Source of the DNA: an uncultured Acidobacteriota bacterium
GTDB taxonomy: Bacteria > Acidobacteriota > Thermoanaerobaculia > Gp7-AA8
Assembly (NCBI GenBank): GCA_963822445.1
Contig: CAWGHO010000001.1
Span: 1,120,001 to 1,184,000, forward strand
Length of the DNA stretch: 64,000 nt
Direction of reading: 5' to 3'
The position numbers and the translations under genes were made by a program. Below, piece by piece: positions 31,179 through 53,211 of the stretch; positions within the stretch are counted from its first letter, which is position 1; each line of letters opens with the position of its first letter. A model generated the notes under the pieces. That model was given only the letters and a program-made list of their open reading frames with translations, did no database searches and was not told the origin of the DNA.

Positions 31179-31249
31179 GGCTGACCTCGCATACAAGTTC
31201 CGGTCCCGGCTGAAAGATGGTGCAGGGATTGAAATGCCGAATAACAAAG

Positions 31250-32184: not shown

Positions 32185-32213
32185 TTGACGGACATGCTGT
32201 AACAGCATAACTT
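32185..32213 (+). promoter_or_regulatory. Sigma70-type promoter with palindromic operator ATGCTG-TAA-CAGCAT (copy 1)
   Basis: TTGACG-N17-TAACTT; operator at 32194-32208; ATG 7 nt after the -10 box. Confidence 0.75.
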
Positions 32214-32220
32214 ACCGTTC

Positions 32221-33615
32221 ATGCAGAACGGAACGGCGCGAGTTGCATGCCTTTACGGCATATTGATTCTCTTCGCCCTCGAGTCCCACGCGGCCGGCCC
32301 TTTCCGCATCGGCGGCCCGGCCACCATCGATAACGACGCCAGCTGCGACATCTCCCTCCTTCCCGCTGCCACGCTGCTCCTCCCCTACTTCGAGGTCGAC
32401 ATCAACTCCTGGGCCGGAACCGGCGAGAACACCATCTTCACGATCACCAACACCGGCCAGCTCCCGCAGGTCGCGCGCGTCACGCTCTGGACCGATCTCT
32501 CCTATCCGGTCATCTCCTTCAACATCTACCTGACCGGATACGACGTACAGAGCATCAACCTCTACGACGTCATCGCTCGCGGTGAGATCGCTCCCGACGA
32601 CGGCACCGGCGCTGATGTGTCGCCGGTCGGCGAGCTGTCCGGCACCAGTGCCACAAAGGAATTCAACAATCCGCTCGTCGATGAGCTGACCTGCACCGAT
32701 TTGGTGGTGCAGATGGCCCCGCCGTACGTCACGCGCATGAAAAGCGCCTTCACCACCGGCAAGGTGCTGACCGCCGGCGAGCTCGGGGCCTGCGCTCAAG
32801 GCGGTTCGGCCCATTCGAACGCGGTCGGATACGCAACCGTCGACGTCGTCGGCCGGTGCGGCATCACGATGCCGAACGATCCCGTGTACTTCGCGAACGA
32901 CATCCGTTTCGACAACGTGCTCATGGGCGACTTCCACCAGATCAACGGCAACGAAGACTTCGCCCAGGGCGGGACGATGGTGCACATCCGAGCCATCCCC
33001 GAGGGGGGGACGCCGCAGACGCGGGATGACGATCGAGACTTCGAAGTGCACGTCCCCCGGACGTTCTACAGCGCCTATCAGGATCCCGCCCGGCCCACGC
33101 TCGATGCGCGACAACCCCTGCCGTCGCTGTTCGCGGCCCGGTGGATCAGCGGCGGTCCGAGCGGTTTCGAGACCGATTACAAGATCTGGCGCGAGGTCGG
33201 CCGCGAGCCCGACTCCTGCCGCGCGCATGCGTCCAACACCCAGGAGTTCCGGGAAATCGTCCGCTTCGATGAAGAGGAGAATGCCGAGGTCTTTCGATAC
33301 GAGTGCGTCGTGACGTGTCCGGCGTACGTGAGCAGCCTTCCGGCGACGTCGCGGGTCAGTGTCGCGCATGACTCCGACCTGCCCCAGAGCTCCCAGGGCG
33401 TCGTCAGCGGCTGGATGTACCTGAACCTCGACGATCGCGTGCGCGACGACATCGCCAGACAGGCCTGGGTGGTCGTCTCCATGCGCGCCGATGACCGCTT
33501 CTCCACCGACTTCGACGCCCTGGCCCTCGGCAACGGCTGCACGGCCCCTCTCGGGACGAGCGAAGCGAATCACGGCGACTTTCACATCGGTCCGGCGCGC
33601 AACAAGAGGAACTGA
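32221..33615 (+). CDS. Secreted array protein P1 (unknown 'PAATLLLPYFEVD' family)
   Basis: Signal peptide; family motifs SCDI.LLPAATLLLPYFEVD, RVTLWTD, GYATVDVV, HIRAIPEGG, FDEEEN, GWMYLNL, LGNGC. Confidence 0.9.
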   Translation: MQNGTARVACLYGILILFALESHAAGPFRIGGPATIDNDASCDISLLPAATLLLPYFEVDINSWAGTGENTIFTITNTGQLPQVARVTLWTDLSYPVISFNIYLTGYDVQSINLYDVIARGEIAPDDGTGADVSPVGELSGTSATKEFNNPLVDELTCTDLVVQMAPPYVTRMKSAFTTGKVLTAGELGACAQGGSAHSNAVGYATVDVVGRCGITMPNDPVYFANDIRFDNVLMGDFHQINGNEDFAQGGTMVHIRAIPEGGTPQTRDDDRDFEVHVPRTFYSAYQDPARPTLDARQPLPSLFAARWISGGPSGFETDYKIWREVGREPDSCRAHASNTQEFREIVRFDEEENAEVFRYECVVTCPAYVSSLPATSRVSVAHDSDLPQSSQGVVSGWMYLNLDDRVRDDIARQAWVVVSMRADDRFSTDFDALALGNGCTAPLGTSEANHGDFHIGPARNKRN

Positions 33616-34967
33616 TGCGCCGCGCGCTGGCAGCGATCGTCCTCTTCACCTCGATCGGTGCCGCGGCATCGACGATCGACAACGACGACAGTTGCGACAT
33701 CTCCCTGCTTCCCGCGGCGACGCTCCTTCTCCCCTATTTCGAGGTGGACATCGAGCCTGCCTACGGCACTACAGACACCACCATCTTCACGGTCACCAAC
33801 GTCAGCCAGTTTCCGCAGATCGCGCGGGTGACGCTCTGGACCGATCTCGCTTATCCCGTCTTCACGTTCAACCTTTATCTGACGGGTTACGACGTGCAGA
33901 GCATCAACCTCTTCGACGTCATCGCCCACGGCAAGGTCGCGCCCGACGACGGCACCGGCGTTGATGTCTCGCCGATCGGCCGGCTCTCCCGCGCAAACGC
34001 GAACCATCCCGCCTACGACAATCCGATCATCGACGAGCAATCGTGTGCCGGCCTGCCCGTCGAGTTGAACGCGGCCATGGTCGCGCGGATGCGGAGCGCG
34101 TTCACGACCGGCAGGGCCTCGGGCGCGAACGCGATGGCCGCGTGCAACACCGCGGGTGAAGTCCACATCAACGCCGCCGGCTACGTGACCATCGACGTGG
34201 TCGGACGCTGCGGCAGCACGATGCCCAACGACCCGGCCTACTACGCCGGCGACATCCGCTTCGACAACGTGTTGATCGGCGATTACCACCAGATCAGGAG
34301 TAGAGAGGATTTCGCCCAGGGCGGGACGATGGTGCACATCCGGGCCATCCCGGAGGGGGGAACGCCTGAGACGCGGGCCGGCGATTCGGACTATCGGGTG
34401 AATCTGCCGCGGACCTTCTACAGCGCGTACCAGGATCCGGCGCGGCCGCTCTTCGACGCTCGCCAGCCGCTTCCCTCGCTTTTCGCTGCGCGCTGGATTG
34501 AAGGGTTCGTCGGCGGTTTCGAGACTTTCTACAAGGTCTGGCGTGAGTCGCGGAACCCGGCCGCATGCCGCGATTACAACATCAACCGCCAGGAGGTGCG
34601 AGACCCGGTCCGCTTCGACGAGGAAGAAAACCCGGAGGCCTACGAGCACTTCTGCTTAGTCCCATGTTTACCGCCCATCTCGCGGATGTCCTCGAGCTCG
34701 CTCATCGGAACTGACCGCGACGACCATCTGCCGGCCAACGCGCAGGGCGCCGTCGCCGGCTGGATGTACCTGAACCTCGACGATCGTCAGAACGACGACG
34801 TCGCCAGGCAGGCCTGGGTGGTCGTCTCCATGCGCGCCGAGGATCGCTTTTCCACCGATTTCGATGCGCTCGCTCTCGGCAACGGCTGCTCTGCCCCGGT
34901 AGGAAGGAGCGAAGCGAATCCCTACGGCACCGTTTCCATCGGCCCCGCGCCGAACAAGAGGAAGTGA
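33615..34967 (+). CDS. Secreted array protein P2
   Basis: TGATG overlap; same motifs as P1. Confidence 0.9.
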   Translation: MRRALAAIVLFTSIGAAASTIDNDDSCDISLLPAATLLLPYFEVDIEPAYGTTDTTIFTVTNVSQFPQIARVTLWTDLAYPVFTFNLYLTGYDVQSINLFDVIAHGKVAPDDGTGVDVSPIGRLSRANANHPAYDNPIIDEQSCAGLPVELNAAMVARMRSAFTTGRASGANAMAACNTAGEVHINAAGYVTIDVVGRCGSTMPNDPAYYAGDIRFDNVLIGDYHQIRSREDFAQGGTMVHIRAIPEGGTPETRAGDSDYRVNLPRTFYSAYQDPARPLFDARQPLPSLFAARWIEGFVGGFETFYKVWRESRNPAACRDYNINRQEVRDPVRFDEEENPEAYEHFCLVPCLPPISRMSSSSLIGTDRDDHLPANAQGAVAGWMYLNLDDRQNDDVARQAWVVVSMRAEDRFSTDFDALALGNGCSAPVGRSEANPYGTVSIGPAPNKRK

Positions 34968-36346
34968 TGCACCACAAATCGACGATCGTCGCCCTGCTCC
35001 TGTTCGCGTTCGCGCGCATCGCCTTCGCCGACGGTCCGTTCCGCGTCGGTGGTCCGGCCACCATCGACAACGACGCCAGCTGCGACATCTCCCTGCTCCC
35101 GGCGGCCACACTGCTCCTGCCGTATTTCGAAGTCGACCTCAACTCGCGTGCCGAGAGAGCTGAGACCACGATCTTCACCATCACCAATACCAGCCAGGTC
35201 CCGCAGATCGCGCGGGTCACGCTGTGGACGGATCTCGCCTATCCCGTCATCACCTTCAACATCTATCTGACCGGCTATGACGTGCAGAGCATCAATCTCT
35301 ACGACGTCATCCGCCGTGGCGAAGTCGCGCCGGATGACGGCACGGGTTTCGACCGCTCGCCGGTGGGAGAGTTGTCAGGAACGACTCCGACCACTGACTT
35401 TGACAACCCGCTCATCGACGAGCAAACCTGTGTGAATCTGCCGGTCAAGCTGCCGGCCGCTCTCACGACGCGGATGCAGAGCGCCTTCACTACCGGCCGG
35501 GTGACCGGCGCCGACGGTTTGTCCGCGTGCGCGACCGCCGGCGGAACGCATCCGACCGCCGTCGGCTACGCGACGATCGACGTCGTCGGCCGGTGCGACA
35601 GCACCATGCCCAGCAGTCTCGCCTACTTCGCCAGCGACATCCGCTACGAAAACGTGCTGATGGGCGATTACCACCAGATCAACGGCGACGAGGACTTCGC
35701 CCAGGGCGGCACGATGGTCCACATCCGGGCGATTCCGGAGGGCGGCACGCCGCAGACGCGCGACGAGGCACCCGAGTTTCGAGTGAACCTGCCGCGTACG
35801 TTCTACGGCCGGTATCAGCATCCCGACCGGCCCAAACTCGACGCGCGACAGCCGCTGCCGTCGCTCTTCGCGGCACGGTGGATCGAAGGCGGCGCGGGTG
35901 GCTTCGAGACCTTCTACAAGGTCTGGCGGGAGTCGCGGAACCCGGCCGCATGCGGCAACTACAAAGCAAACGACCAGGTCGTGCGGGATGGCGTCCGCTT
36001 CGACGAGGAAGAAAACCCAATGACTTATGACCGCTATTGCTACATCACGTGTCCTTGGTGGGTCCCGCGGATGCCATCCGCGTCGCTGGTCGACGTATCC
36101 CGGGACGACGATCTGCCTACGAACACACAGGGCGCCGTCGCCGGCTGGATGTACCTCAACCTCGATGGTGAGGACGACGAGATCGCCGGACAGGCCTGGG
36201 TGGTCGTCTCCATGCGCTCCGAGGATCGCTTCTCCACGGACTTCGATGCGCTCGCTCTCGGGAACGGTTGCTCCGCGCCGGCGGGCCTGAGCGAAGCGGA
36301 CTACGGCGACTTTCCCATCGGCCCGGCGCCGAACAGGAGGAAGTGA
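34967..36346 (+). CDS. Secreted array protein P3
   Basis: TGATG overlap; same motifs; N-terminal two-thirds nearly identical to P4. Confidence 0.9.
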   Translation: MHHKSTIVALLLFAFARIAFADGPFRVGGPATIDNDASCDISLLPAATLLLPYFEVDLNSRAERAETTIFTITNTSQVPQIARVTLWTDLAYPVITFNIYLTGYDVQSINLYDVIRRGEVAPDDGTGFDRSPVGELSGTTPTTDFDNPLIDEQTCVNLPVKLPAALTTRMQSAFTTGRVTGADGLSACATAGGTHPTAVGYATIDVVGRCDSTMPSSLAYFASDIRYENVLMGDYHQINGDEDFAQGGTMVHIRAIPEGGTPQTRDEAPEFRVNLPRTFYGRYQHPDRPKLDARQPLPSLFAARWIEGGAGGFETFYKVWRESRNPAACGNYKANDQVVRDGVRFDEEENPMTYDRYCYITCPWWVPRMPSASLVDVSRDDDLPTNTQGAVAGWMYLNLDGEDDEIAGQAWVVVSMRSEDRFSTDFDALALGNGCSAPAGLSEADYGDFPIGPAPNRRK

Positions 36347-37731
36347 TGCACCACAAATCGACGATCGTCGCCCTGCTCCTGTTCGCGTTCGCGCGCATCG
36401 CCTTCGCGGACGGTCCGTTCCGCGTTGGCGGTCCGGCCACCATCGATAACGACGCCAGCTGCGACATCTCCCTCCTGCCTGCGGCCACGCTCCTGCTGCC
36501 GTACTTCGAAGTCGACATCACCTCTGCCGCCGGCACGGGCGAGACCACGATCTTCACGATCACCAATGTCAGCCAGGTCCCCCAGATCGCGCGGGTCACG
36601 CTGTGGACCGATCTCGCCTATCCGGTCTTCACCTTCAACATCTACCTGACCGGCTATGACGTGCAGAGCATCAATCTCTACGACGTCATCCGCCGTGGCG
36701 AAGTCGCGCCGGATGACGGCACCGGTTTCGACCGCTCGCCGGTGGGAGAGTTGTCCGGAACGACAGCGACCACGGACTTCGACAACCCGCTCATCGACGA
36801 GGGAACCTGTGTGAATCTGCCGGTCAAACTGCCGGCCGCTCTCACAACCCGGATGCAGAGCGCCTTCACCACCGGCCGCGTGACGGGCGTCGACGGTTTG
36901 TCCGCGTGCTCGACCGCCGGCGGAACGCATCACAACGCCGTTGGTTACGCGACGATCGACGTCGTCGGCCGGTGCGACAGCACCATGCCCAGCAGCCTCG
37001 CCTACTTCGCCAGCGACATCCGCTACGAGAACGTGCTCATGGGCGATTACCACCAGATCAACGGCGACGAGGACTTCGCCCAGGGCGGCACGATGGTCCA
37101 CATCCGCGCCATTCCGGAGGGGGGCACGCCGCAGACACGCGATGACGAACCGGCGTACCGGGTCAACCTGCCGCGCACGTTTTACGGGGCGTATCAGCAT
37201 CCCGACCGCCCCACGCTCGACGCGCGTCAGCCGCTGCCGTCTCTTTTCGCAGCCCGCTGGGTCAGCGGCGGCGCCTCGGGATTCGAGACCTACTTCAAGA
37301 TCTGGCGCGAGGGACGCGGCAGACTCGAGTCCTGTGCGGCTTACAAGACGAACGCGTTCGCCGCCCAGGATTCAGTGCGGTTTGACGAGGAGGAGAATCC
37401 AGAGGCGTCGAATAACTACTGCTTTCCGCCGTACTACTGCTTTGTCCCGCTATTCAATCCGACTTCGCTCATCGATAGCGAGAGCGACGACTTCCCGCCG
37501 AATACCCAGGGCGCCATCGGCGGCTGGATGTATCTGAACCTCGACGATCATCAAGTCGACGGCGACGCCCGCCAGGCCTGGGTGGTCATCTCCATGCGCG
37601 CCGAGGATCGCTTCTCCACCGACTTCGATGCTCTTGCTCTCGGGAACGGCTGCTCAGCGCCGGTGGGCATCAGCGAAGCGAAAGGCGGCGACCTTCCCAT
37701 CGGCCCGGCGCCGAACAAGAGGCAGCCATGA
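36346..37731 (+). CDS. Secreted array protein P4
   Basis: TGATG overlap; signal peptide identical to P3. Confidence 0.9.
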   Translation: MHHKSTIVALLLFAFARIAFADGPFRVGGPATIDNDASCDISLLPAATLLLPYFEVDITSAAGTGETTIFTITNVSQVPQIARVTLWTDLAYPVFTFNIYLTGYDVQSINLYDVIRRGEVAPDDGTGFDRSPVGELSGTTATTDFDNPLIDEGTCVNLPVKLPAALTTRMQSAFTTGRVTGVDGLSACSTAGGTHHNAVGYATIDVVGRCDSTMPSSLAYFASDIRYENVLMGDYHQINGDEDFAQGGTMVHIRAIPEGGTPQTRDDEPAYRVNLPRTFYGAYQHPDRPTLDARQPLPSLFAARWVSGGASGFETYFKIWREGRGRLESCAAYKTNAFAAQDSVRFDEEENPEASNNYCFPPYYCFVPLFNPTSLIDSESDDFPPNTQGAIGGWMYLNLDDHQVDGDARQAWVVISMRAEDRFSTDFDALALGNGCSAPVGISEAKGGDLPIGPAPNKRQP

Positions 37732-38954
37732 GAATGGCGCTCGCTGCCATGTTCCTGCTCGCGATCGGAGCCACCGCGCAGCCGGTGACGAACAACGACG
37801 CCAGTTGCGACATCTCCGTCGCCCCGGCGGCCACGTTGCTGCTGCTCCTCTTCGAGGTGAATCTCACCGCTCCCGCGGGGACCGGCGAGACGACGATCTT
37901 CACGGTCACGAACACAGGGAAATCGCCGCAGATCGCGCGGGTCACGTTGTGGACTGACCTCGCCTACCCGGTCTTCACCTTCAACATCCCGCTCGCCGGT
38001 TACGAGGCGCAGAGCATCAACCTCTTCGACGTCCTCGGTCGTGGCGAGATTCGCGGCCGCGCAGGTTCCTGCGCGAATTTCACCCCGCGGCTGGATCCAC
38101 CGGTTCGCACCCGGATGCAGCGGGCGTTCACCAGGGGCACAGTCAACGGCCTTCCGCCTTTGCCCGACTGCCCCGCCGTTGGCGCGCGGCACGCCAATGC
38201 CATCGGGTACGCGACGATCGACGTCGTCGGTGATTGCGACTCGTCGATGCCCACCGATCGTGAGTACTTCTCCAACGACATCCGCTTCGACAACGTTCTC
38301 CTCGGCGACTACCAGCAGATCAACGGCGACGAGGATTTCGCGCAGGGAACACCGATGGTGCACATCCGGGCCATTCCGGAAGTGATGGCGCCGCGCACGT
38401 TTTACGGGCTGTATCAGCACCCCGCCCGTCCGTCGTTCGACGCGCGGCAGCCACTGCCCTCTTTGTTCGCGGCGAGGTGGATCGACGGGCCGGGCGTGGA
38501 GACGCACTACAAGATCTGGCGCGAGTCTCTCGACGACTTCCTCGCATGTGCCGGCTATGCGCAAAACTTCCGGCCGGTCAGGGAAGTGGTTCGCTTCGAT
38601 GAAGACGAGAACGTCGAGACCACCGCATCGGACTATCTTTTCCTCGGCCCCTCCACCGATGTCTCCCTCCGGGCGACGTCCGTGGTCGACGCCGCGGCCC
38701 ATCACAACTTCCCCGATAACAGCGACGGAGCCGTCGGAGGGTGGATGTACTTCAACCTCGACGGCCTCAATCGGGTTACGCCCCATCCTTCCCAGGGCTG
38801 GGTGACGATCTCCATGCGCGCGCAAAACCGGTTCTCCATCGACTTTGACGCGGCGTATCTCGGCAACGGATGCAGCGCGCCGGTGGACATCAGCGAGGCC
38901 ACCGCCTGGGGAGGGCCTCCCATCGGCCCGGCGCCGAACAAGAGGCAGCATTGA
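37728..38954 (+). CDS. Secreted array protein P5
   Basis: ATGA overlap; same motifs with two internal loop deletions; close to P6. Confidence 0.9.
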   Translation: MRMALAAMFLLAIGATAQPVTNNDASCDISVAPAATLLLLLFEVNLTAPAGTGETTIFTVTNTGKSPQIARVTLWTDLAYPVFTFNIPLAGYEAQSINLFDVLGRGEIRGRAGSCANFTPRLDPPVRTRMQRAFTRGTVNGLPPLPDCPAVGARHANAIGYATIDVVGDCDSSMPTDREYFSNDIRFDNVLLGDYQQINGDEDFAQGTPMVHIRAIPEVMAPRTFYGLYQHPARPSFDARQPLPSLFAARWIDGPGVETHYKIWRESLDDFLACAGYAQNFRPVREVVRFDEDENVETTASDYLFLGPSTDVSLRATSVVDAAAHHNFPDNSDGAVGGWMYFNLDGLNRVTPHPSQGWVTISMRAQNRFSIDFDAAYLGNGCSAPVDISEATAWGGPPIGPAPNKRQH

Positions 38955-40216
38955 AGCCGGCGCTCGCCGCCGTGATGCTGCTTGCCTTCGCGGCCACCGC
39001 CCAACCCGTGACGAACAACGACGCCAGTTGCGACATCTCCGTCGCCCCGGCGGCCACGTTGCTGCTGCCCTTTTTCGAAGTAAATCTCACCGTTCCCGCC
39101 GGGACCGGCGAGACGACGATCTTCACCGTCACGAACACAGGGAAATCGCCGCAGATCGCGCGGGTAACGCTATGGACCGACCTGGCCTACCCGGTCTTTA
39201 CCTTCAACATTCCTCTCGCCGGTTACGAGGCGCAGAGCATCAACCTCTTCGATGTCCTCGGTCGTGGCGCGATTCGCGGCGGCTCGGAATCATGCGGAGG
39301 TTCCCTGCGACGGTTGGATCCACCGGTCCTCGCCCGGATGCAGCGGGCGTTCACCACGGGCAAAGTCAACGGCCTTCCGTCTTTACCCGACTGTCCCTTC
39401 GTCGGTATGCGGCACGCAAATGCCATCGGGTACGCGACCATCGACGTCGTCGGTGATTGCGACTCGTCGTTGCCCACCGACGGCGACTACTTCTCGAACG
39501 ACATCCGCTTCGACAACGTGCTCCTCGGCGACTACCAGCAGGTCAAGGGCGACGAAGATTTCGCGCAGGGCGGAACGATGGTGCATATCCGCGCGATCCC
39601 CGAGGGAGGTACCGTGCAAAGCCGCGCCGGCGATCCCAGATTCGCGGTGAATGCACCGCGCACCTTTTACAACGTCTACCAGCATCCCGCCCGTCCGCGG
39701 TTCGACGCCCGTCAAGCCTTGCCCTCGCTGTTCGCGGCGAGGTGGATCGAAGGAGACCGGAGCGGTTTCGAAACGCACTACAAGATCTGGCGCGAGTCTC
39801 GTGACAACCACATCTCCTGCGTGGCTTATGCGCGGAACTACAGGCCGGTCCTGGAAACGGTGCGCTTCGATGAAGAGGAAAACTTCGAAACGATGGCACC
39901 TGAGATCCTCGTCCCCGGCGCCCCCTATGAGCTCTACCTTCCCGCGGCGTCCATCACGGACATCGCGGCGAACAAAGACTTCCCACTCAACACCATGGGG
40001 GCGATCGCCGGGTGGATGTATCTCAACCTCGACGACCTGGATCGCGACAGCCATGCCTCCCAGGGCTGGGTTTCCGTCTCCATGCGCGCGGAGGATCGAT
40101 ACTCCACGGACATGGACGCGGCGTATCTCGGCAATGGCTGCAGCGCACCGGTGGATACCAGCGAGGCGACTCTCTGGGGGCCAGCCATCGGGCCGGCGCC
40201 GAACACCCGTAAGTAA
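38951..40216 (+). CDS. Secreted array protein P6
   Basis: TTG start overlapping TGA; signal peptide (M)KPALAAVMLLAFAATA; same motifs. Confidence 0.88.
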   Translation: MKPALAAVMLLAFAATAQPVTNNDASCDISVAPAATLLLPFFEVNLTVPAGTGETTIFTVTNTGKSPQIARVTLWTDLAYPVFTFNIPLAGYEAQSINLFDVLGRGAIRGGSESCGGSLRRLDPPVLARMQRAFTTGKVNGLPSLPDCPFVGMRHANAIGYATIDVVGDCDSSLPTDGDYFSNDIRFDNVLLGDYQQVKGDEDFAQGGTMVHIRAIPEGGTVQSRAGDPRFAVNAPRTFYNVYQHPARPRFDARQALPSLFAARWIEGDRSGFETHYKIWRESRDNHISCVAYARNYRPVLETVRFDEEENFETMAPEILVPGAPYELYLPAASITDIAANKDFPLNTMGAIAGWMYLNLDDLDRDSHASQGWVSVSMRAEDRYSTDMDAAYLGNGCSAPVDTSEATLWGPAIGPAPNTRK

Positions 40217-40235
40217 CAATTTCGAAAAACCGCCC

Positions 40236-40265
40236 TTGACTGTGATGCTGTAGCAGCATTAAGTT
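40236..40265 (+). promoter_or_regulatory. Promoter with palindromic operator ATGCTG-TAG-CAGCAT (copy 2)
   Basis: TTGACT-gtg-ATGCTGTAGCAGCAT-TAAGTT; same spacing as copy 1. Confidence 0.75.
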
Positions 40266-40369
40266 ATTGCCGACATGGGCTTCCTCGGCGTACCGACCAG
40301 CCTCAACCATCTCTCAGCGCCTTCCATCAGCACGCGTAAATCCTTCAAAAGGAATGGGATCACAGCATA

Positions 40370-42978: not shown

Positions 42979-43009
42979 TTTCTTGACATTCCTGCGCTCG
43001 GGGCGGACC

Positions 43010-43027
43010 ATGTTAAAAATTTGACAT
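43010..43027. promoter_or_regulatory. Candidate BlaI-family operator ATGTTAAA-AA-TTTGACAT
   Basis: Near-perfect AT-rich palindrome overlapping the repressor start codon; TTGACA -35 box at 42983-42988. Confidence 0.55.
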
Positions 43028-43415
43028 GAGCCCGACCGAACCCAAAGGCCTCAGCCGCCGCGAGCGCCAGATCCTCGACGTCATCTACCACCTCGGACGC
43101 GCCAGCGCGTCCGAGGTGCTCGAGCGGATGGCCGATGCTCCGACGTACACGACCGTGCGCGGTCTGCTGCGCGTGCTCGAGTCCAAAGGCCACGTCCGGC
43201 ACGAAGAGGAAGAGGGCCGCTACGTTTACTTCCCGACCATGACCAAGCAGCGCGCTGCGAAGAGCGCACTCACGCATGTGGTCAGCACGTTCTTCGATGG
43301 CTCGCCGTCGCAGGCCATGGCGGCGCTCCTCGGCAGCGAACGCCGTTTGAGCGAAGACGAGATCGAGCGGCTGGCTGAATTGATCGAGCGCGCTCGCGAG
43401 AAGGAGAAGTCGTGA
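43026..43415 (+). CDS. BlaI/MecI/CopY family transcriptional repressor
   Basis: LSRRERQILDVIY, YTTVRGLLRVLESKGHV, GRYVY, FFDGS. Confidence 0.93.
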   Translation: MSPTEPKGLSRRERQILDVIYHLGRASASEVLERMADAPTYTTVRGLLRVLESKGHVRHEEEEGRYVYFPTMTKQRAAKSALTHVVSTFFDGSPSQAMAALLGSERRLSEDEIERLAELIERAREKEKS

Positions 43416-44835
43416 TTCTGAAGATCACGCTGGTCCTGCTCGCGGCGCTCGTTGCGTCCGCGTTGTTGCGCCGCGCCGCGGCGGCGACGCGTCACGCGGT
43501 GCTGGCGGCGGGGCAAATCGCGGCGCTTTGCTTGCCGCTGCTCACCTTCATCGTTCCGCCGGTTACGGTTTCTGCCCCCGGTGTAGTGTGGGCCTCCGGC
43601 CTACCTCTCGTTCCCCCGCCCCAGGGTAGGCCGGAGGCCCACACTACACGCGCGATCCGGGTGACAGACCTTTGGGGCTCCTCGGCATCCTCGCCATCGC
43701 GCTGCTTCGCATCACGAGCTACCTGCGCGCGGCGGCCGTCGTTCGCCGCGCCGAATCGTTCGGCAACGTGTTGCTCAGCGATGAAGTCGATCAGCCGATG
43801 ACCTTCTTCACGCGCATCATCCTTCCGCGCAGCGCGAGCTCCTGGACGGACGAGCGGCTCCGCGCCGTGCTCCTTCACGAAGGCGCGCACGTTGCGCGGC
43901 ATGACACGTTCTTCGGCATGGTCAGCGATGCGCTCTGCGCGATTTACTGGTTCCATCCGCTGGCCTGGCTGACCGCGCGGCGCGCGCGGCTCGAGCGCGA
44001 GCGCGCTTGCGATGACGTCGTGCTCTCGCAGGGCGTGGGGCGCTTCGATTACGCCGCGGCACTGCTCGATGTCGCGCGGACCGTTCGACGCCGTCACGCC
44101 ACCGCGGCCATCGCCATGGCTGAGCGTCCGCATCTCGAACAGCGCGTGCGGGCGATCCTCGACTCGGCGACGAATCGCCGCGCGACCCGCGCCGCGCGCA
44201 CCGCCGTCTTCGTCACCGTTTTCGCGACCGCGCCGTTGCTCGCCGCGCTGACCACGATCTCCATTCCGCTTCCGCGCTCCGGCGAGCCCGATCTGCTCAA
44301 CGATGCCGTCACCTCTCCGTTCAGCGAGCGCATCGGCGCGCCGTTGGTGAGTGTGTCCGCGAGCGGGCCCGATGCGGCGTTCATCGAGACGATGCAGAAG
44401 GTGGCGACCATCGCGCCGCGGACCTCGATCGACTTCGTCGCCGATCGCGCGCGATGGGCGCTGGCGCAGGTGAATGACGGTGAGCTCGTGACGCCGCTGA
44501 TCGACGCGCTCGACCACAGCGACTGGCGCGTCCGCGCCTACGCCTCCTGGTGCCTCGGCCTCAGCGCGGACCGCCGGGCCACGGACCCGCTGGTGGCGAT
44601 GCTCGAGGATCCCGTCTGGCGCGTGCGCGCATCGGCCGCGGACGGTCTTGCCCGCCTCGCCGATCCCGCAGCCTCCGCCGCCATGCGCCGCGCGCTCAGC
44701 GACGATGCCTGGCAGGTGCGCATGCCGGCGGTGCAGTACTTCGCCGCCATCGGTGGCAGCCGTGAATTGTTCGAGACCATGCGGCGCGACCGGCACATCG
44801 CCGTGTGCATGACCGCCGAGGAGGCTTTGCGATGA
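43412..44835 (+). pseudogene. BlaR1-type M56 metallopeptidase with HEAT repeats; frameshift near 43671-43677 (real or sequencing error)
   Basis: N-terminal part (LLRRAAAATRH) in ORF 43412-43801. HEGAH, YWFHPLAW, ERACDD and the HEAT repeats lie in ORF 43672-44835. One extra base at tttgggg would join them. Confidence 0.75.
43581..43649. repeat. GTAG-type REP doublet (perfect 25-bp inverted repeat) inside the M56 gene
   Basis: gtgtagtgtgggcctccggcctacc ... ggtaggccggaggcccacactacac; 69 bp, in frame. Confidence 0.88.
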
Positions 44836-46334
44836 AACGGCGTTCCCTTTTTTTGGCTCTGCATGTCACTTTTTTGACATCAACCCTTTCCGCGCAACTC
44901 CCCGAGCTCGACACGTACATCGAGAACGCCCGCAAGCAGTGGGAGTGTCCCGGCATCGCCGTGGCCGTGGTCAGGGACGGCAAGGTTCTGATGACGAAAG
45001 GCTACGGCGTCCGCACGCTCGGCAGGCCGGAGCTCGTCGACGAGAACACGATGTTCGACACGGCGTCGCTGTCGAAGTCCTTCACCGCTGCCGCGATCGC
45101 CACGCTCGTCGACCAGGGAAAAATGCGCTGGGACGATCCCGTGCGAAAGCATCTGCCCACGCTCGAGTTTCCCGATGCCTATCGCAGCGCGAACGTCACC
45201 GTCCGCGACCTCCTCGCCCATCGCATCGGTCTCGAGCCGGCGAATTTCATGATGCGCATGACGAACTATCCGACCGAGGAGGTGCTGCGGCGGGTGCGGT
45301 TCCTCGAGGAGCGCGATCCGTTCCGCAGCACGTTCACCTACTTCAACATCGGTTACGCGATCGCCGGTGAAGCCGCCGCAGCGGCCGCAAAGATGTCCTT
45401 CGCGGATCTGGTCCGCACGAGTCTCGTCGAGCCGCTGGGCATGCGCGACACGACCGTCGCCGTCGATCACGCGCGCGCGTCGAATCACGCTTCATCGCAT
45501 GCGCGGATCGACGGAGTGCATCAGCCCATTCGCACGCGCAAGCGGATGAACATTCAGGGCGCGAACGCAGTGAACTCCACGGCCAAAGACATGGCCAGAT
45601 GGCTGCTCTTCAACCTCGGCGACGGGACGTGGGAAGGAAAAAAGATCCTGACGCCGGAGGCGCTCGCCGAGATGCATTCGCCGCACTCGATCATCCCCAC
45701 CACCCCGGCCATGCGCGCCGCGCGCGGCGTTCACTTTTTCGGCGGGTACGGTCTGGGATGGCAAGTCATGGACTATCGCGGCCACAAGATGCTCTGGCAC
45801 AGCGGCAACGCCGACTGCATGCCCGTGTACATGGCCATCCTGCCGAACGAGAAGATCGGCGTGCTGGTGATGACGAACAGCTGGGAAGCGGGAACGCTGC
45901 ACGGCATGATCGCCGGCCGCATCCTCGACACGCTCCTCGGCGACGTGCCGCTGAAGGATTCTGCGGCCGAAGGCCTGGAGGGATTCCGCAACGCGGCGAA
46001 GCGGGCTGTCGAGGAACGCGAGGCAGTCGAGAAAGCGCGCATCACCGGCACGAAACCCTCGCGGCCGCTCGATGCCTACGCCGGGACTTACGTCGACACC
46101 ATGCATGGCGACATGGTCGTCAAGCATGAAAACGGACGGCTGACGCTGACGTTCGGCGGCGGCGAGCAGGCCGATCTCGAGCACTGGCACCACGACGTCT
46201 TCAGCGTCCGCTGGCACGACCGCGCCTACGAGTGGGCGGACACGTTCATCGCCTTCGCACTGGACGCGTCAGGGACGCCGAAGAGGTTCGAGATGAAGTT
46301 GTATCGGGACCTGATCGAGGCGGTACGGCGTTGA
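44832..46334 (+). CDS. Serine hydrolase (beta-lactamase class C-like) with C-terminal DUF3471-like domain
   Basis: PGIAVAVV, SLSK (SxxK), LLAHRIG, YFN, YGLGW, HSG; YAGTY...HG C-terminal domain. Confidence 0.9.
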   Translation: MKRRSLFLALHVTFLTSTLSAQLPELDTYIENARKQWECPGIAVAVVRDGKVLMTKGYGVRTLGRPELVDENTMFDTASLSKSFTAAAIATLVDQGKMRWDDPVRKHLPTLEFPDAYRSANVTVRDLLAHRIGLEPANFMMRMTNYPTEEVLRRVRFLEERDPFRSTFTYFNIGYAIAGEAAAAAAKMSFADLVRTSLVEPLGMRDTTVAVDHARASNHASSHARIDGVHQPIRTRKRMNIQGANAVNSTAKDMARWLLFNLGDGTWEGKKILTPEALAEMHSPHSIIPTTPAMRAARGVHFFGGYGLGWQVMDYRGHKMLWHSGNADCMPVYMAILPNEKIGVLVMTNSWEAGTLHGMIAGRILDTLLGDVPLKDSAAEGLEGFRNAAKRAVEEREAVEKARITGTKPSRPLDAYAGTYVDTMHGDMVVKHENGRLTLTFGGGEQADLEHWHHDVFSVRWHDRAYEWADTFIAFALDASGTPKRFEMKLYRDLIEAVRR

Positions 46335-46359
46335 CAAAAATGCTGATACGGCATAGTTT
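46331..46359 (+). promoter_or_regulatory. Promoter with operator ATGCTG-ATA-CGGCAT (copy 3)
   Basis: TTGACA-N17-TAGTTT; operator at 46340-46354 in the same register as copies 1 and 2. Confidence 0.72.
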
Positions 46360-46370
46360 AAGGCCTCGAT

Positions 46371-47744
46371 ATGCCCATAAAGCATCGCGGGACTGTCCTC
46401 CTCCTCCTTTGTCTCGCTGCCCCGATGGTCTCCGGCGCCACGCCGACGATCGATAACGACTCCGGCTGCGACATCGCCCTCCTTCCCGCGGCCACGCTGC
46501 TGCTGCCCTATTTCGAAGTGGACATCCACGCGGAGGCGGGCAAAGGCGAGACGACGATCTTCACCATCACCAACGTCACGAACCTTCCCCAGATCGCGCA
46601 TGTCACGTTGTGGACGGACCTCGGCTATCCGGTGATCGACTTCAACCTCTATCTGACCGGCTACGACGTGCAGAGCATCAATCTGTACGACGTGATCGGC
46701 TGGGGCCAGATCGCGCCCGACGACGGCACGGGCATGGATGTATCACCGGTCGGGGATTTGTCGGGGCCTACGCCGACGCTCGACAACGACAATCCGCTCG
46801 CGATCGAGGCGAGCTGTGTCGATCTGCCGGTCGAGCTTCCTCGCCGCTACGCCACCCTCATGCAGCAGGCCTTCACGACGGGGAAAACGACACCCCTGAC
46901 TCTCGGCCAGCCGGTCTGCGAGCGGATCGGAAACGTGCACCTGAATGCGGTCGGCTACGCCACGATCGACGTGGTCAGCAATTGCACAACCGCGCTGCCG
47001 ACGCAGAGCCGATACTTCGAGAACGAGATCCTGTTCGACAACACCCTGGTCGGCGACTACCTGCAGTTCAACGGAACGGACGGCGCGGCCCAGGGCGGAC
47101 CGATGGTTCACATCCGCGCCATTCCGGAAGGTGGAACACCGCGGACGCGAGCGGACAACCCGGCGTATCAGGTCAACTTCCCGCGCACGTTCTACAGCCG
47201 CTATCAACTTCCGTCGAAGCCGCGGTTCGATGCGCGGCAGCCGCTGCCCGCGCTTTTTTCGGCGCGGTTCATCTCCGGTGATTACGGCGAGCGAACCCTT
47301 CTGAAGGTCTGGCGCGAAGGACGCGAGAGCGGCACGGCGTGCGGCGCTTACAAGGTCAACCTGATGAACATGAGCGATGTGGTTGTCTTCGACGAAGAAG
47401 AGAACCCAGCCACCATCGTTCCCGGCCCGTACTTGCCCGGGCCGTCCACGGATCCCCTCCTGCCCGCGACCTCGACGGTCGACGTGGAAGGGCCGGTTCT
47501 CATTTTCTCCTCGCCCGCGTTCCAGAACGACAGCGGCTGGCTTTACCTGAACCTCGACTACGACAGATACGACGCCTTCGCAAGCCAGAACTGGGTCATC
47601 TCATCGATGCGCGCAGGTTCCACCTACACCGTGGACATCCCCGCATCCGCCCTCGGCAACGGATGCTCCGCGCCGATCAGTTACAGCCAAGCCTCCAGCC
47701 GCGACGGCACCGTGATCGGCCCGCCACCGAACACGAGGCCATGA
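46371..47744 (+). CDS. Secreted array protein P9
   Basis: Signal peptide; same family motifs. Confidence 0.9.
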   Translation: MPIKHRGTVLLLLCLAAPMVSGATPTIDNDSGCDIALLPAATLLLPYFEVDIHAEAGKGETTIFTITNVTNLPQIAHVTLWTDLGYPVIDFNLYLTGYDVQSINLYDVIGWGQIAPDDGTGMDVSPVGDLSGPTPTLDNDNPLAIEASCVDLPVELPRRYATLMQQAFTTGKTTPLTLGQPVCERIGNVHLNAVGYATIDVVSNCTTALPTQSRYFENEILFDNTLVGDYLQFNGTDGAAQGGPMVHIRAIPEGGTPRTRADNPAYQVNFPRTFYSRYQLPSKPRFDARQPLPALFSARFISGDYGERTLLKVWREGRESGTACGAYKVNLMNMSDVVVFDEEENPATIVPGPYLPGPSTDPLLPATSTVDVEGPVLIFSSPAFQNDSGWLYLNLDYDRYDAFASQNWVISSMRAGSTYTVDIPASALGNGCSAPISYSQASSRDGTVIGPPPNTRP

Positions 47745-49102
47745 CCATGCGCGCGGCGATCCTCACAATCCTCATCGCCGTTGGCCTTTCCGCCGGCGCC
47801 GCCGATGCCACGATCGACAACGATGCCGGTTGCGACCTCTCGCTCCTTCCCGCAGCGACGCTCCTTCTCCCGTATTTCGAGGTCGATCTCGCCTCCGGGC
47901 CGGGGCTGGGCGAGACCACGATCTTCACCATCACCAACGTCGCGAACATCCCCCAGGCCGCGCGCGTGACCCTGTGGACCGATCTGGGTTACCCCGTCAT
48001 CACCTTCAACATCTATCTCACCGGCTACGACGTGCAGAGCATCAATCTTTACGACTTTTTCGCGCGAGGCCGGATCGCGCCGAACGACGGGACCGGTTCC
48101 GATGTCTCTCCGGTCGGCAAGCTATCCGGCACGTCGCCAACCCGCGACTTCGACAACCCGCTGCTCGCCGAATCCACTTGCGTCGACTTCCCGGTGCAGC
48201 TGCCCCCGAATTACATCTCCCCCATCCAGCGGACATTCACCACAGGCGATGTCGACCCTCTGCCGCATGACCGGACACGGCCGGCATGCCAGAAGATCGG
48301 AGAGCCGCATGTGAACGCGATCGGTTACGCGACCATCGACGTCGTTGGCACGTGCACGTACACGTTGCCTAACGAGCCCCGCTATTTCTCCGACGAGATC
48401 CTGTTCGACAACGTCCTGACCGGCGATTACGTGCAGCTCCGGGGCAAGGACCACGTCGTCCAGGCCGGTCCGCTCGTGCACATCCGGGCCATTCCCGAGG
48501 GGGGCTCGGCGCGGTCGCGGGTGGGCGACGCCAGGTATCTCAGCCGGTTTCCGCGGACGTTCTACAGCCGTTATCAGCATCCCGAGCGCCCGCGCAGCGA
48601 TGCGCGTCAGCCGCTTCCGAGCGTCTTCGTCGCCCGTTTCCTCGGCGGCCGCCGCTCCGAACCTCAGTCCTTCCTGAAAATCTGGCGCGAAGGCCGCGAA
48701 TTCGGCACGGCTTGCAACGTCTACTCCTTGCGAAACCGGACGGCACTCACCGAGGTGATCCGCTTCGACGAGGAAGAGAATCCGTCCACCCACGCACCGT
48801 CGAACAGCCCTTATGACCAGCCCCCCAACGTCCCGTTGGCCTTCATGACCGATGTCAATCGCGGCGGCATCGTCCCGTCGTACTCGGACGAACCCAACGG
48901 CTGGATCTACGTGAACCTCGACGGTTACTACGACAACGACAACATCCCCACGCAGGGCTGGGTCATCTCGTCGATGCACTCGGGCGGATATTCGGTCGAC
49001 CTGCCCGCCACTGCCCTGGGAAATGGATGTTCAGCGCTGGTCGCACCCACCGACCACGACGGCACACCACCCATCGGACCGGCGCCGAACGTGAGGCGCT
49101 GA
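47741..49102 (+). CDS. Secreted array protein P10
   Basis: ATGA overlap; signal peptide; same family motifs. Confidence 0.9.
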   Translation: MTMRAAILTILIAVGLSAGAADATIDNDAGCDLSLLPAATLLLPYFEVDLASGPGLGETTIFTITNVANIPQAARVTLWTDLGYPVITFNIYLTGYDVQSINLYDFFARGRIAPNDGTGSDVSPVGKLSGTSPTRDFDNPLLAESTCVDFPVQLPPNYISPIQRTFTTGDVDPLPHDRTRPACQKIGEPHVNAIGYATIDVVGTCTYTLPNEPRYFSDEILFDNVLTGDYVQLRGKDHVVQAGPLVHIRAIPEGGSARSRVGDARYLSRFPRTFYSRYQHPERPRSDARQPLPSVFVARFLGGRRSEPQSFLKIWREGREFGTACNVYSLRNRTALTEVIRFDEEENPSTHAPSNSPYDQPPNVPLAFMTDVNRGGIVPSYSDEPNGWIYVNLDGYYDNDNIPTQGWVISSMHSGGYSVDLPATALGNGCSALVAPTDHDGTPPIGPAPNVRR

Positions 49103-49105
49103 GGC

Positions 49106-50446
49106 ATGCGTATCTTTGTTCTTCTTCTGCTGACCGCCGTCACGTTGTCCGCAGGTGCATCGAAGGTCAACAACGACGCCACCTGCGACATCGCCCAACT
49201 CCCTGCCGCAACGCTGTTGCTGCCGTACTTCGAAGTCGACCTCAGCTCGGGGCCGGGAGCCGGCGAGACGACGATCTTCACCATCACCAACGTCACGAAC
49301 CTCCCGCAGATCGCCCATGTCACGTTGTGGACGGATCTCGGGTATCCAGTGATCGACGTCAACATCTACCTGACCGGTTACGACGTGCAGAGCATCAATC
49401 TCTACGACCTGTTGAAGTTCGGCTGGGTCGCGGCGCCGGACGGAACGGGTTCGGACGTGTCGCCGGTTGGGAGATTGTCGGGAATCCCGGACAGGAGCGA
49501 CTTCGATAACCTGAACGCCGATGAGTCGACGTGCATCGACCTGCCCGTGCAACTGCCTCGCGTCTATGTCGACCGGATGCAGCAGGCCTTTACCACCGGC
49601 AACGCCGGTCCGGCGGGCAAGTTCCGCTCCTGCCAGAAAATCGGCAAGCCCCATCGCAACGCGGTCGGATATGTGACGATCGACGTCGTCAGCATCTGCA
49701 GCACCACGATGCCGATCGACCAGCCCTACTTCACCAGGGAGATCCTGTTCGACAACGTGCTCACCGGCGATTACGTGCAGTTCAACGGCACGACAAAGAC
49801 CGCGCAGGGCGGGCCACTCGTTCACATCCGGGCGATTCCCGAGGGAGGAACGCCTGGCTCGCGGCGCGTGCCGGAATACAAGGTCCATCTGCCCCGGACG
49901 TTCTACAGCCGCTACCAGCCTGCGTCGCAGCCCCGTTTCGACGCGCGTCAGCCTCTCCCCTCCGTGTTTGCAGCGCGATACATCTCCGATGCCGGTCAAC
50001 GGACGTTCCTGAAGATGTGGCGGGAAGGGAGCGAGGTCGGTACCGCATGCGAGGCTTACTCGCGGAACGAGCGGTACGTCGCCGATGTGGTGCGCTTCGA
50101 TGAAGAGGAAAACGCGGAAGGCGTGTTCGTCTTCATCAACGCCCAACCACATGTCGCGCTCTTTCCGTTTCTTCCGCTGACCTCGATTCACGACATCGAT
50201 GATGGCGGCGTGTTCCCCGACAGTCCCGGCGGGGACGGCGGCTGGCTCTACCTGAACATGGACTACGACAACCGCGACGACTTCGCCGGCCAGGCCTGGG
50301 TGATCTCCTCGATGCGCGCCGGCAATGGCTTCTCCGTGGACATGCCCGCAACACCTCTCGGCAACGGCTGCTCGGCGCCGGTCGACCTCTCCGAAGGCTC
50401 ATCGGGCCTCGCGACGATCGGCCCCGCGCCGAACATCCAGCCCTGA
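49106..50446 (+). CDS. Secreted array protein P11
   Basis: Signal peptide; same family motifs. Confidence 0.9.
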   Translation: MRIFVLLLLTAVTLSAGASKVNNDATCDIAQLPAATLLLPYFEVDLSSGPGAGETTIFTITNVTNLPQIAHVTLWTDLGYPVIDVNIYLTGYDVQSINLYDLLKFGWVAAPDGTGSDVSPVGRLSGIPDRSDFDNLNADESTCIDLPVQLPRVYVDRMQQAFTTGNAGPAGKFRSCQKIGKPHRNAVGYVTIDVVSICSTTMPIDQPYFTREILFDNVLTGDYVQFNGTTKTAQGGPLVHIRAIPEGGTPGSRRVPEYKVHLPRTFYSRYQPASQPRFDARQPLPSVFAARYISDAGQRTFLKMWREGSEVGTACEAYSRNERYVADVVRFDEEENAEGVFVFINAQPHVALFPFLPLTSIHDIDDGGVFPDSPGGDGGWLYLNMDYDNRDDFAGQAWVISSMRAGNGFSVDMPATPLGNGCSAPVDLSEGSSGLATIGPAPNIQP

Positions 50447-52985: not shown

Positions 52986-52989
52986 CACA

Positions 52990-53211
52990 CCCTCCCTTCG
53001 GTTGGCTTTGGCCGCGCGCAAGGCCTATAGTCGAGTCGTGCTCCGACAGCATCTGAGAATGCGTTTCGGGCCAAAGCACTTCGTCCCGCTCGAAAGTCCG
53101 GAGGGATTCGTCGATCCGAACACGGGCGGAATTCGTAGCGGGACGAACCCTTCTTCTCAGTATCGCGCCGCCTGAATCCGATTCTCCCGATTGCCACCCA
53201 ACGGGTACTTC
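52990..53211 (-). ncRNA. Candidate IS110 bridge RNA
   Basis: Non-coding left end upstream of the recombinase; contains CTCAGATG (core plus target flank) and CCTCCGGAC (matches target flank). Boundaries inferred. Confidence 0.55.

Follow-up and report, generated by a model that had tools for sequence, protein, structure and literature searches.

Paralog-specific loop cassettes on a shared scaffold in a tandem gene array of an uncultured Acidobacteriota bacterium

Introduction

How do neighboring genes of one tandem array come to encode proteins that are closely similar along much of their length and yet wholly different in one short loop? This question is raised by a 64,000-nucleotide stretch of DNA from an uncultured Acidobacteriota bacterium (GenBank assembly GCA_963822445.1, contig CAWGHO010000001.1, positions 1,120,001 to 1,184,000; hereafter, the window). 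Positions 32221 to 50446 of the window hold 11 same-strand paralogs on the + strand, which we call P1 to P11, with open reading frames (ORFs) of 408 to 464 amino acids (aa) whose products are 46 to 83% identical to one another. These appear to be secreted, beta-rich, disulfide-bonded proteins of a large uncharacterized family found in Acidobacteriota, mainly in Thermoanaerobaculia. An earlier note on this DNA had described a hypervariable loop after a conserved RFDEEEN motif in the array proteins, likened it to the complementarity-determining regions (CDRs) of antibodies, and proposed that it is an exposed, sometimes disulfide-stapled specificity loop under diversifying selection. We found that the loop is indeed highly variable, that the genes are of mosaic ancestry, that loops are conserved among orthologs, that nonsynonymous change shows no net excess, and that no diversity-generating element was found in the window. 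The explanation that we favor, as probable though far from certain, is that the array encodes stable, paralog-specific recognition loops on a scaffold homogenized by gene conversion. The description of the loop as CDR-like, hypervariable, and under diversifying selection is not supported.

Results and Discussion

The loop after the acidic motif is the most variable part of the array proteins

A six-frame search of the window for [RV]FDE[ED]EN returned 11 sites, all on the + strand and each followed by a loop. The motif site is therefore present in every paralog, as the earlier note had claimed, although RFDEEEN is not its constant wording: P5 reads FDEDEN and P9 reads VFDEEEN. All 11 loop strings quoted in that note were correct, and the loop, about 20 residues long, is unrelated in sequence between the 11 paralogs. 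In the 11-paralog alignment, columns 367 to 382 form the sole long run with smoothed entropy of at least 2.0 (2.41 bits versus 1.11 overall), the only further stretch at this level being columns 391 to 393. Ranked by 15-column segments, the highest entropies were found at columns 367 to 381 (the loop; 2.42), 382 to 396 (2.03), and 341 to 355 (a patch after KIWRE; 1.79), and these three segments are contiguous, the invariant motif aside. The mean entropy of the mature protein is 1.10, and a value of 2.42 was reached in 0 of 5,000 shuffles of column entropies. The hypervariable loop and the second variable patch after KIWRE reported in the earlier note are both borne out by these values. The loop feature is real and non-random.

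The loops are also distinctive in composition, being enriched in Pro (18.6% versus 6.5%), Tyr (6.4% versus 3.8%), and Cys (3.6% versus 1.6%). There was no enrichment of Trp or Phe in the 11 loops, and thus the claim that the loops are rich in Y, W, F, and P held for Pro and Tyr but not for the other two residues. Each of P1 to P4 carries the extra Cys pair that had been noted, and the duplication described in the P4 loop was also recovered: TACTGCTTT occurs at 37417 and again at 37435, a spacing of 18 nucleotides (nt), with 0.02 matches expected. The Cys pair of this loop coincides with the TACTGCTTT repeat.

Mosaic ancestry accounts for the contrast between P3 and P4

The contrast is sharpest in P3 and P4, which the earlier note called near-identical. 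Their loops do differ, but the proteins are 83% identical overall and near-identical only over approximately the first 300 codons. Nor is the difference confined to the loop; instead, a block of ~75 columns (316 to 390) differs. DNA identity between the two genes is 79 to 99% over columns 1 to 300 (at least 90% in most windows of the comparison), 52 to 60% over columns 316 to 390, and 79 to 87% beyond. Synonymous divergence follows the same boundaries: the rate of synonymous substitution (dS) is 0.31 outside the block, and inside it the proportion of synonymous differences (pS) is 0.62 to 0.84, saturated even across the codons of the invariant motif. The variable unit is therefore best described as a cassette of ~80 codons that comprises the post-KIWRE patch, the Pro-rich loop (~20 residues) that directly follows the motif, and 15 further residues. 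P2 and P3 share 80 to 90% identity at their 3' ends, versus 95 to 99% at the 5' ends for P3 and P4.

Two close relatives of the array, P0041 and P0042, place this cassette in time. P0042, a protein of another organism, is 80% identical to P4; it is similar to P1 in the signal peptide and first ~90 residues and nearly matches P4 in the cassette (..NTHCFPPYYCRSPLF.. versus ..NNYCFPPYYCFVPLF..; 84% identity). P0041 is 79% identical to P3, and its cassette resembles those of P3 and P2. In a tree of the N-terminal part from 29 sequences, P3 and P4 grouped together with support of 96 and were joined next by P0041 (96) and then by P0042 (95). A tree of the cassette from the same number of sequences (79 columns) instead grouped P4 with P0042 (support 100) and P3 with P2 and P0041 (87). 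The approximately unbiased (AU) test rejected a P3-P4 grouping on the cassette (p = 0.0013) and a P4-P0042 grouping on the N-terminal part (p = 0.02). A significant conflict between segment trees of the same genes is one mark of a mosaic tandem paralog cluster, and synonymous divergence that differs between segments of one paralog pair is a second; both were found here. Since the cassette groups P4 with P0042 while the scaffold groups P3 with P4, the cassettes are older than the split of the organisms, and the scaffold was later homogenized within the genome. The P4 TACTGCTTT duplication likewise predates the split of the two organisms, since the Cys spacing of P4 is also found in P0042. Mosaic ancestry, rather than the fast change that the earlier note had read into it, explains the contrast between P3 and P4. 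A self-blastn comparison of the array merged its alignments into long low-identity matches and gave no conversion-tract boundaries.

Variability that is so localized could also be produced by targeted hypermutation or by templated diversification, whether by a diversity-generating retroelement or by gene conversion from silent donor cassettes. Localization is the only feature that speaks for such a process. Pfam scans of ~50 window ORFs outside the array contained no reverse transcriptase, and each 66-nt loop segment matched only itself in the 64-kb window, besides chance matches of 11 to 19 nt. The synonymous sites of the cassette are as diverged as the nonsynonymous ones, and the cassette is stable between organisms. 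We consider this explanation extremely improbable and, as far as the window goes, refuted. With neither a reverse transcriptase nor a template repeat in the window, an origin from a diversity-generating retroelement or from silent cassettes was rejected.

Loops are kept across genomes and differ within arrays

To place the loops in the wider family, we used 61 loci from a scan of species-representative genomes, all of them metagenome-assembled genomes (MAGs) of Acidobacteriota, with a best identity to P1 of 55% and thus no close relative of the window array among them. A hidden Markov model run over stop-to-stop ORFs in these loci and the window identified 164 units, and the 154 that covered at least 75% of the model were kept. 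Units occur singly or in tandem runs; the 11 of the window are the largest count, with each locus spanning at most ~21 kb. The acidic motif, written F-D-[ED]-x-E-N, was matched in full by 133 of the 154 units, with F in 151, D in 153, [ED] at position 3 in 149, E at position 5 in 144, and N in 148. Few stretches of the protein are thus as strongly conserved as the motif that borders the loop. The loops themselves are between 7 and 27 residues long, and 45 of the 154 hold a Cys pair, its members usually 3 to 4 residues apart; the tree requires a minimum of 26 gains or losses of this pair, compared to a mean of 38.8 for shuffled labels.

When loops were compared in tree order, they were found to be kept across genomes in single-copy orthologs (e.g., L007/8/9/11/14/35/53, L013/16/17, and L037/43/45) and to differ among members of one array. 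One loop type, ..[IV]xSPx..PETS, is common to 18 units from single-copy or small loci; it is also the loop type of P0138, a twelfth family member that lies elsewhere on the contig of the window. Loop identity depended on whether the compared units shared a genome. At 80 to 90% scaffold identity, it was 0.72 for between-genome pairs (n = 24) and 0.46 for within-genome pairs (n = 5; 0.28 for both P3/P4 and P5/P6), and at 70 to 80% scaffold identity, the corresponding values were 0.49 (n = 48) and 0.33 (n = 11). Conservation of the loop among orthologs in close relatives, which the earlier note had set against its own proposal, was thus found in part: the P4 cassette is 84% identical in P0042, but the loops of P11 and its nearest relative are unrelated.

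The loop is less constrained than the scaffold without a net nonsynonymous excess

Diversifying selection on the loop would be expected to raise the ratio of nonsynonymous to synonymous substitution rates (dN/dS, or omega) above 1. The omega values reported here are pairwise or pooled over the whole loop, not site-wise. For pairs within the window, Nei-Gojobori counts gave loop dN/dS values of 0.42 to 0.81 or saturated pS, and no pair exceeded 1. Among 15 between-genome pairs, loop dN/dS was 0.08 to 0.62 in 14 and 1.20 in one. Values above 1 were found in some recent within-genome pairs (2.05, 2.19, and 1.51), each resting on 7 to 14 synonymous sites. We then pooled independent sister pairs with scaffold pS below 0.45, drawn from 54 cherries of the tree; a same-gene duplicate fetch, tiny loops, and pairs that were too diverged were dropped. 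For the 16 between-genome pairs, omega was 0.33 in the scaffold and 0.67 in the loop (loop pS, 0.375; proportion of nonsynonymous differences [pN] in the loop, 0.279; scaffold pS, 0.330), and for the 17 within-genome pairs, it was 0.38 in the scaffold and 0.70 in the loop (loop pS, 0.508; loop pN, 0.408; scaffold pS, 0.335).

Pooled loop pN was lower than pS both between genomes (p = 0.010) and within genomes (p = 0.017), and the ratio of nonsynonymous to synonymous change in the loop exceeded that in the scaffold (p = 3e-4 between genomes; p = 6e-6 within genomes). These results indicate that the loop is less constrained than the scaffold, without a net nonsynonymous excess. The loop does not reach a dN/dS above 1 in the pooled data, and the ongoing diversifying selection that the CDR-like label implied is not supported: pooled loop pN is lower than pS, and no in-window pair has a loop dN/dS above 1. 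Loop pS exceeded scaffold pS only within genomes (odds ratio, 2.0; p = 1e-6), the between-genome comparison giving p = 0.16, which indicates that the loops of neighboring paralogs are older than their scaffolds.

These data bear on two other views of the loop. In an arms race, which the earlier note had in part proposed, it would be an exposed epitope or receptor site kept variable by diversifying selection that phages, predators, or competitors continue to impose. The array proteins look secreted from their N termini, their loops change nonsynonymously faster than the scaffold, several sister pairs have a loop pN above pS, P11 and P0051 have unrelated loops at 71.5% identity, and the Cys pair is a labile trait (at least 26 changes for 45 carriers), all of which would suit this view. 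Set against them are the pooled excess of pS over pN in both pair classes and the conservation of loops in single-copy orthologs across genomes and between P4 and P0042. Furthermore, the 11 copies are intact, co-oriented, and coupled, which points to joint expression rather than to antigenic switching one copy at a time. The window yielded neither silent cassettes nor invertible segments nor a reverse transcriptase, and the array proteins submitted to PADLOC and PHROGs had no match. We consider arms-race variation to be quite unlikely.

The second view is that the loop is a structurally tolerant connector with no specific role, which drifts, and that the cassette is a by-product of where conversion tracts end. 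The intermediate pooled dN/dS of 0.67 to 0.70 is what this view has in its favor, together with the wide range of loop lengths and the lower confidence of the modeled loop (predicted local distance difference test [pLDDT] of 64 to 74). Drift of this kind is hard to square with the scaffold-like loop dN/dS of 0.08 to 0.24 in several ortholog pairs, with the retention of one loop type in 18 units from many genomes, or with the 84% identity of the P4 cassette in P0042. The enrichment of Pro and Cys, the recurrence of a closely spaced Cys pair, and the position of the loop, which abuts the most conserved motif of the protein, also argue against it. A tolerant connector is, in our view, unlikely.

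The array proteins belong to a large family without a detectable fold relative

Sequence searches did not connect the array proteins to any described family. Five of the 11 were submitted to Pfam, and three each to NCBIfam, PHROGs, and PADLOC, without a match, and no PDB sequence matched a profile built from all 11 at E values up to 1. Matches in the ESM Atlas were only to "hypothetical protein" clusters from Acidobacteriota. Of 8,000 candidates scored, 3,419 belonged to the family at an E value of ≤0.001, none of them with a Pfam domain. Those with names are nearly all "hypothetical protein" of Thermoanaerobaculia or Acidobacteriota, with one from a Vicinamibacterales MAG. The family includes at least 1,862 cluster representatives (clustering at 50% identity), of which 711 reach an E value of ≤1e-30. 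Family forms of ~800 aa hold two copies of the domain, and a few very long relatives fuse it to modules typical of extracellular proteins (PKD, BACON, or P_proprotein). Text searches of the literature found no paper on this protein family.

An AlphaFold2 (AF2) model of P1, built from 66 sequences, was confident (pLDDT, 86.5; predicted template modeling [TM] score, 0.87) and beta-rich. It places the loop between strands 345 to 350 and 376 to 380, where the chain is irregular except for a two-residue bridge (372 to 373) and pLDDT falls to 74 and 64. Foldseek searches of this model against PDB and BFVD returned nothing at an E value of ≤0.001. The only confident local match was to TM1070 (PDB code 1nc7), a protein without an assigned function, over 116 residues (probability, 1.0; target TM-score, 0.73). 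Capsid and jelly-roll matches were rejected (probability of ≤0.16; TM-scores of ~0.1 to 0.15). An immunoglobulin (Ig) V-type fold was not found either, since single-chain Fv entries appeared in the PDB search only at an E value of 0.075 and a probability of 0.06 to 0.07.

Each array protein has a signal-peptide-like N terminus and six other invariant Cys residues besides the loop Cys pair, features from which secretion and disulfide bonding of these proteins may be expected. Tolerance of insertions and deletions (7 to 27 residues), composition, and lower model confidence all suggest that the loop is exposed at the surface. A disulfide within the loop and a role in binding are likewise plausible from these features.

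A fixed repertoire of recognition loops is the favored explanation

Our best functional reading, inferred from these features, retains part of what the earlier note had proposed, namely, a specificity loop that is sometimes disulfide-stapled. The loop is a discrete, indel-tolerant element that adjoins the acidic motif, carries a Cys pair in 45 of 154 units, and changes nonsynonymously about twice as fast as the scaffold. In the mechanism that we envisage, the acidic motif at the end of a beta-strand would be part of a conserved functional site that either catalyzes a reaction or binds a metal or ligand. The loop beside it, closed by a short CxxxC-type disulfide in ~30% of members, would set the ligand or substrate of each paralog, and the array would be a fixed repertoire of specificities that are expressed together. 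As for the origin of the pattern, the data indicate that, after duplication, loops diverge or are swapped as cassettes, without hypermutation, and are then held by purifying selection within each orthologous lineage. Gene conversion homogenizes neighboring scaffolds but stops at the cassette, or is selected against across it. It is because scaffold conversion spares the cassette that P3 and P4 look near-identical and are still wholly different in the loop.

Several observations weigh against stable recognition loops on a converted scaffold. A loop dN/dS of 0.67 to 0.70 equally fits simple relaxed constraint. P11 has a loop unrelated to that of its nearest relative, P0051, despite an overall identity of 71.5%, and loop pN exceeded pS in L050_6123/L050_8726 (0.50 versus 0.29), L054/L038 (0.60 versus 0.37), and W_P7/L004_9974 (0.83 versus 0.37); together, these cases indicate turnover of the loop, possibly adaptive, in some lineages. 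The close relatives of the window array that were compared are P0041 and P0042 only, as protein sequences, and the clades submitted to the AU test were named after the trees had been seen. The pairs in the loop-identity bins are not independent, many of them coming from a single clade with seven orthologs. Between distant paralogs, loops cannot be aligned reliably, and both pS and pN are inflated as a result. Finally, because there is no ligand, fold relative, or family annotation to draw on, the binding role is inferred from anatomy alone.

A bolder form of the same idea is that the array is a bacterial germline repertoire, in which gene conversion keeps the scaffold and its acidic site uniform and selection keeps the short cassette loop, often closed by a disulfide, different in every copy. 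Such an array would present about a dozen specificities at once in the manner of antibody V genes and would have evolved independently in soil Acidobacteriota. We offer this form only tentatively and think it somewhat unlikely.

Comparison with described systems helps to delimit what may be particular to this array. The tandem lipoprotein cluster of Staphylococcus aureus consists of tandem paralogs with concerted, mosaic evolution (PMC2568036), and strings of type VII secretion system (T7SS) immunity genes are shaped by recombination between tandem paralogues (bioRxiv 10.1101/2022.01.07.475358). As reported, both clusters resemble the array in having same-strand tandem paralogs, recombination between neighbors that gives the segments of one gene separate histories, and alternating conserved and variable segments, but they are unrelated to it in protein family, fold, and phylum. 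The array also differs in its variable unit, an intragenic cassette of ~80 codons that adjoins an invariant acidic motif. The exchanged unit of the S. aureus cluster is reported to span gene boundaries, as that of the array may also do.

The CDR comparison itself is instructive in part. The V genes of antibodies share with the array a constant beta-rich scaffold, a few hypervariable indel-tolerant loops, many tandem copies, and gene conversion. Their CDRs form a germline receptor repertoire in which loops bear the specificity. The array differs in having no somatic diversification machinery and no Ig-fold match, in the stability of its loops across species, and in a net dN/dS below 1. The variable proteins of diversity-generating retroelements are secreted or surface proteins whose variability is localized to a short segment that binds ligand. 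The array is like these targets in its localized variability, but no reverse transcriptase or template repeat was found in the window; moreover, its divergence is old, is not limited to particular bases, and lies between paralogs rather than within one gene. Jelly-roll and beta-sandwich families of carbohydrate-binding proteins and glycoside hydrolases have conserved acidic strand residues flanked by specificity loops. The array proteins resemble them in being secreted and beta-rich, in combining an acidic strand motif with a variable loop, in the PKD and BACON fusions of their relatives, and in multigene expansion. This resemblance is a lead only, as there is no Pfam, NCBIfam, or PDB sequence match and no fold match at an E value of ≤0.001.

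Soils are rich in Thermoanaerobaculia and their relatives, most of which are uncultured. If the loops set ligand specificity, then the arrays encode how these bacteria distinguish extracellular substrates or partners, and the scaffold could serve as a framework for loop display. The locus is also a clean natural case of scaffold homogenization by gene conversion with protected variable cassettes, a pattern easily misread as hypermutation, and it belongs to a large family that has neither a name nor a detectable fold relative.

Array genes are closely packed and preceded by promoter-like modules

All genes of the array are on the + strand, and their starts were refined from upstream context. 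P1 (32221 to 33615; 464 aa) has its motif at 33265 to 33282 and its loop, with the Cys pair CVVTC, at 33283 to 33342. The next three genes also carry Cys pairs. P2 (33615 to 34967; 450 aa), the start of which overlaps the P1 stop by 1 nt, has the F codon of its motif at 34614 and its loop at 34632 to 34691 (CLVPC); in P3 (34967 to 36346; 459 aa), these lie at 35999 and 36017 to 36076 (CYITC), and in P4 (36346 to 37731; 461 aa), at 37381 and 37399 to 37458 (CFPPYYC). P5 (37728 to 38954; 408 aa) has two internal deletions relative to P1, its FDEDEN motif at 38595, and its loop at 38613 to 38672. P6 (38951 to 40216; 421 aa) begins at a TTG that overlaps the P5 stop (motif, 39866; loop, 39884 to 39943). 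P7 (40370 to 41701; 443 aa; motif, 41387; loop, 41405 to 41467) and P8 (41698 to 42978; 426 aa; motif, 42655; loop, 42673 to 42732), which begins at a GTG overlapping the P7 stop, both lack the IGPAPN tail. Further downstream lie P9 (46371 to 47744; 457 aa), with VFDEEEN from the F codon at 47388 and a loop at 47406 to 47465; P10 (47741 to 49102; 453 aa), the ATG of which overlaps the P9 stop (motif, 48764; loop, 48782 to 48835); and P11 (49106 to 50446; 446 aa; motif, 50096; loop, 50114 to 50176).

Stop and start codons overlap (ATGA, GTGA, or TGATG) at seven gene junctions of the array, and the conserved codons of the tail (..AAC AAG AGG..) provide the following gene with a Shine-Dalgarno-like AAGAGG. 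With this arrangement, the genes are probably for the most part translationally coupled. The C-terminal tail, ..IGPAPN[KR]R[KQ], is conserved in P1 to P6 and P9 to P11 (e.g., 33586 to 33612). A 29-residue surface segment (alignment columns 131 to 159) is absent from both P5 and P6, and P5 also lacks 14 residues at columns 268 to 281; these deletions indicate that the scaffold loops at both places are dispensable.

Three promoter-like modules on the + strand precede P1, P7, and P9. Each consists of TTGACn, three bases, a palindrome (ATGCTGnnnCAGCAT), and a TAnnTT-like hexamer. Module 1 (32185 to 32213), which ends 8 nt before the P1 ATG, has TTGACG, the 15-bp palindrome ATGCTGTAACAGCAT (32194 to 32208), and TAACTT. 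Module 2 (40236 to 40264) lies in the gap between P6 and P7 and has TTGACT, ATGCTGTAGCAGCAT (40245 to 40259), and TTAAGT. Module 3 (46331 to 46359), which ends 12 nt before the P9 ATG, has TTGACA, ATGCTGATACGGCAT (46340 to 46354), and TAGTTT. At up to 3 mismatches, the window contains seven palindrome matches (the three sites on both strands plus one more), compared to 0.41 expected. The modules may serve as promoters. A consensus promoter scan gave one weak site only, fewer than in shuffles, and missed all three.

The 15-bp palindrome, ATGCnGnnnCnGCAT, thus sits between -35-like and -10-like hexamers, and a weaker site is present in the window at 32247 to 32261. In 866 kb of related loci, we found seven occurrences, six of which precede the start of a family unit by 49 to 290 nt (L001:7215, L012:8529, L023:9943, L026:1612, L043:9708, and L050:1403). 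An exact search for the full promoter-plus-palindrome pattern found no match in the 61 loci; it was the looser, palindrome-only search that did. The palindrome is probably a conserved operator, and a BlaI-type repressor encoded inside the array is a candidate for its binding partner. A 31-codon ORF (40275 to 40370) starts ~10 nt after module 2, and its TAA overlaps the start codon of P7 (TAATG); the ORF may encode a leader peptide, or it may be coincidental.

Neighboring genes

Directly upstream of the array, on the + strand, lies a gene for a 318-aa protein with a signal-peptide-like N terminus and no known family (up318; 31217 to 32173). Relatives with 62 to 72% identity were found by tblastn in 10 loci, plus one partial match, beside or inside arrays, and in L001, L003, L006, L012, and L031, the gene is located just upstream of the first array gene. 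Two motifs, ETHGTNG and SACNSG, are invariant in the alignment of these proteins (mean column identity, 74%), and each of them follows a predicted strand. Searches of Pfam, NCBIfam, and PDB sequences gave no match for up318. Its AF2 model was poor (pLDDT of 65, falling below 50 around both motifs), and Foldseek found no fold match, caspase-like or other, on this poor model. The motifs resemble the catalytic His/Cys dyad of caspase-like (clan CD) cysteine peptidases, a resemblance that is a lead only, with no support from family or fold searches. A complex prediction for P1 (residues 36 to 464) and up318 (residues 36 to 306), run without controls, scored 0.00 against a mark of 0.32 and is evidence neither way.

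Between P8 and P9, the array is split by a three-gene island (43026 to 46334) on the + strand. The island encodes the BlaI-type repressor (Penicillinase_R; 43026 to 43415; PF03965, E = 1.2e-26), a BlaR1-like M56 peptidase with HEAT repeats (43672 to 44835, with a start that may be further upstream; PF05569, E = 1.4e-22), and a beta-lactamase-fold serine hydrolase with DUF3471 (44805 to 46334; PF00144, E = 1.3e-67). A Penicillinase_R repressor adjoining an M56 sensor peptidase is the arrangement of a BlaI/BlaR1 regulatory pair. The order of array, repressor, and M56 peptidase recurs in L001, whose post-array repressor copy is 84% identical.

Downstream of the array, also on the + strand, are two genes for bacterial PH-domain (bPH_2) proteins (PF03703), at 50325 (or a later start) to 50984 (E = 7e-15) and at 50981 to 51697 (E = 6e-18), the second of which is 62 to 68% identical to genes downstream of arrays in nine loci. 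Beyond them, on the - strand, is an IS110-family transposase gene (51741 to 53021; DEDD_Tnp_IS110 and Transposase_20). Farther upstream in the window, a 2,190-aa ORF on the + strand (11509 to 18081) contains nine Calx-beta stretches, a lamin-tail domain, an endonuclease/exonuclease/phosphatase domain, DUF11, and an IPTL-CTERM sorting motif and is probably a giant surface-anchored nuclease or phosphatase. Two adjacent large ORFs on the + strand, at 1725 to 4352 and 4145 to 6853, encode VWA and Big_7 domains, and the first of these also encodes GWxTD.

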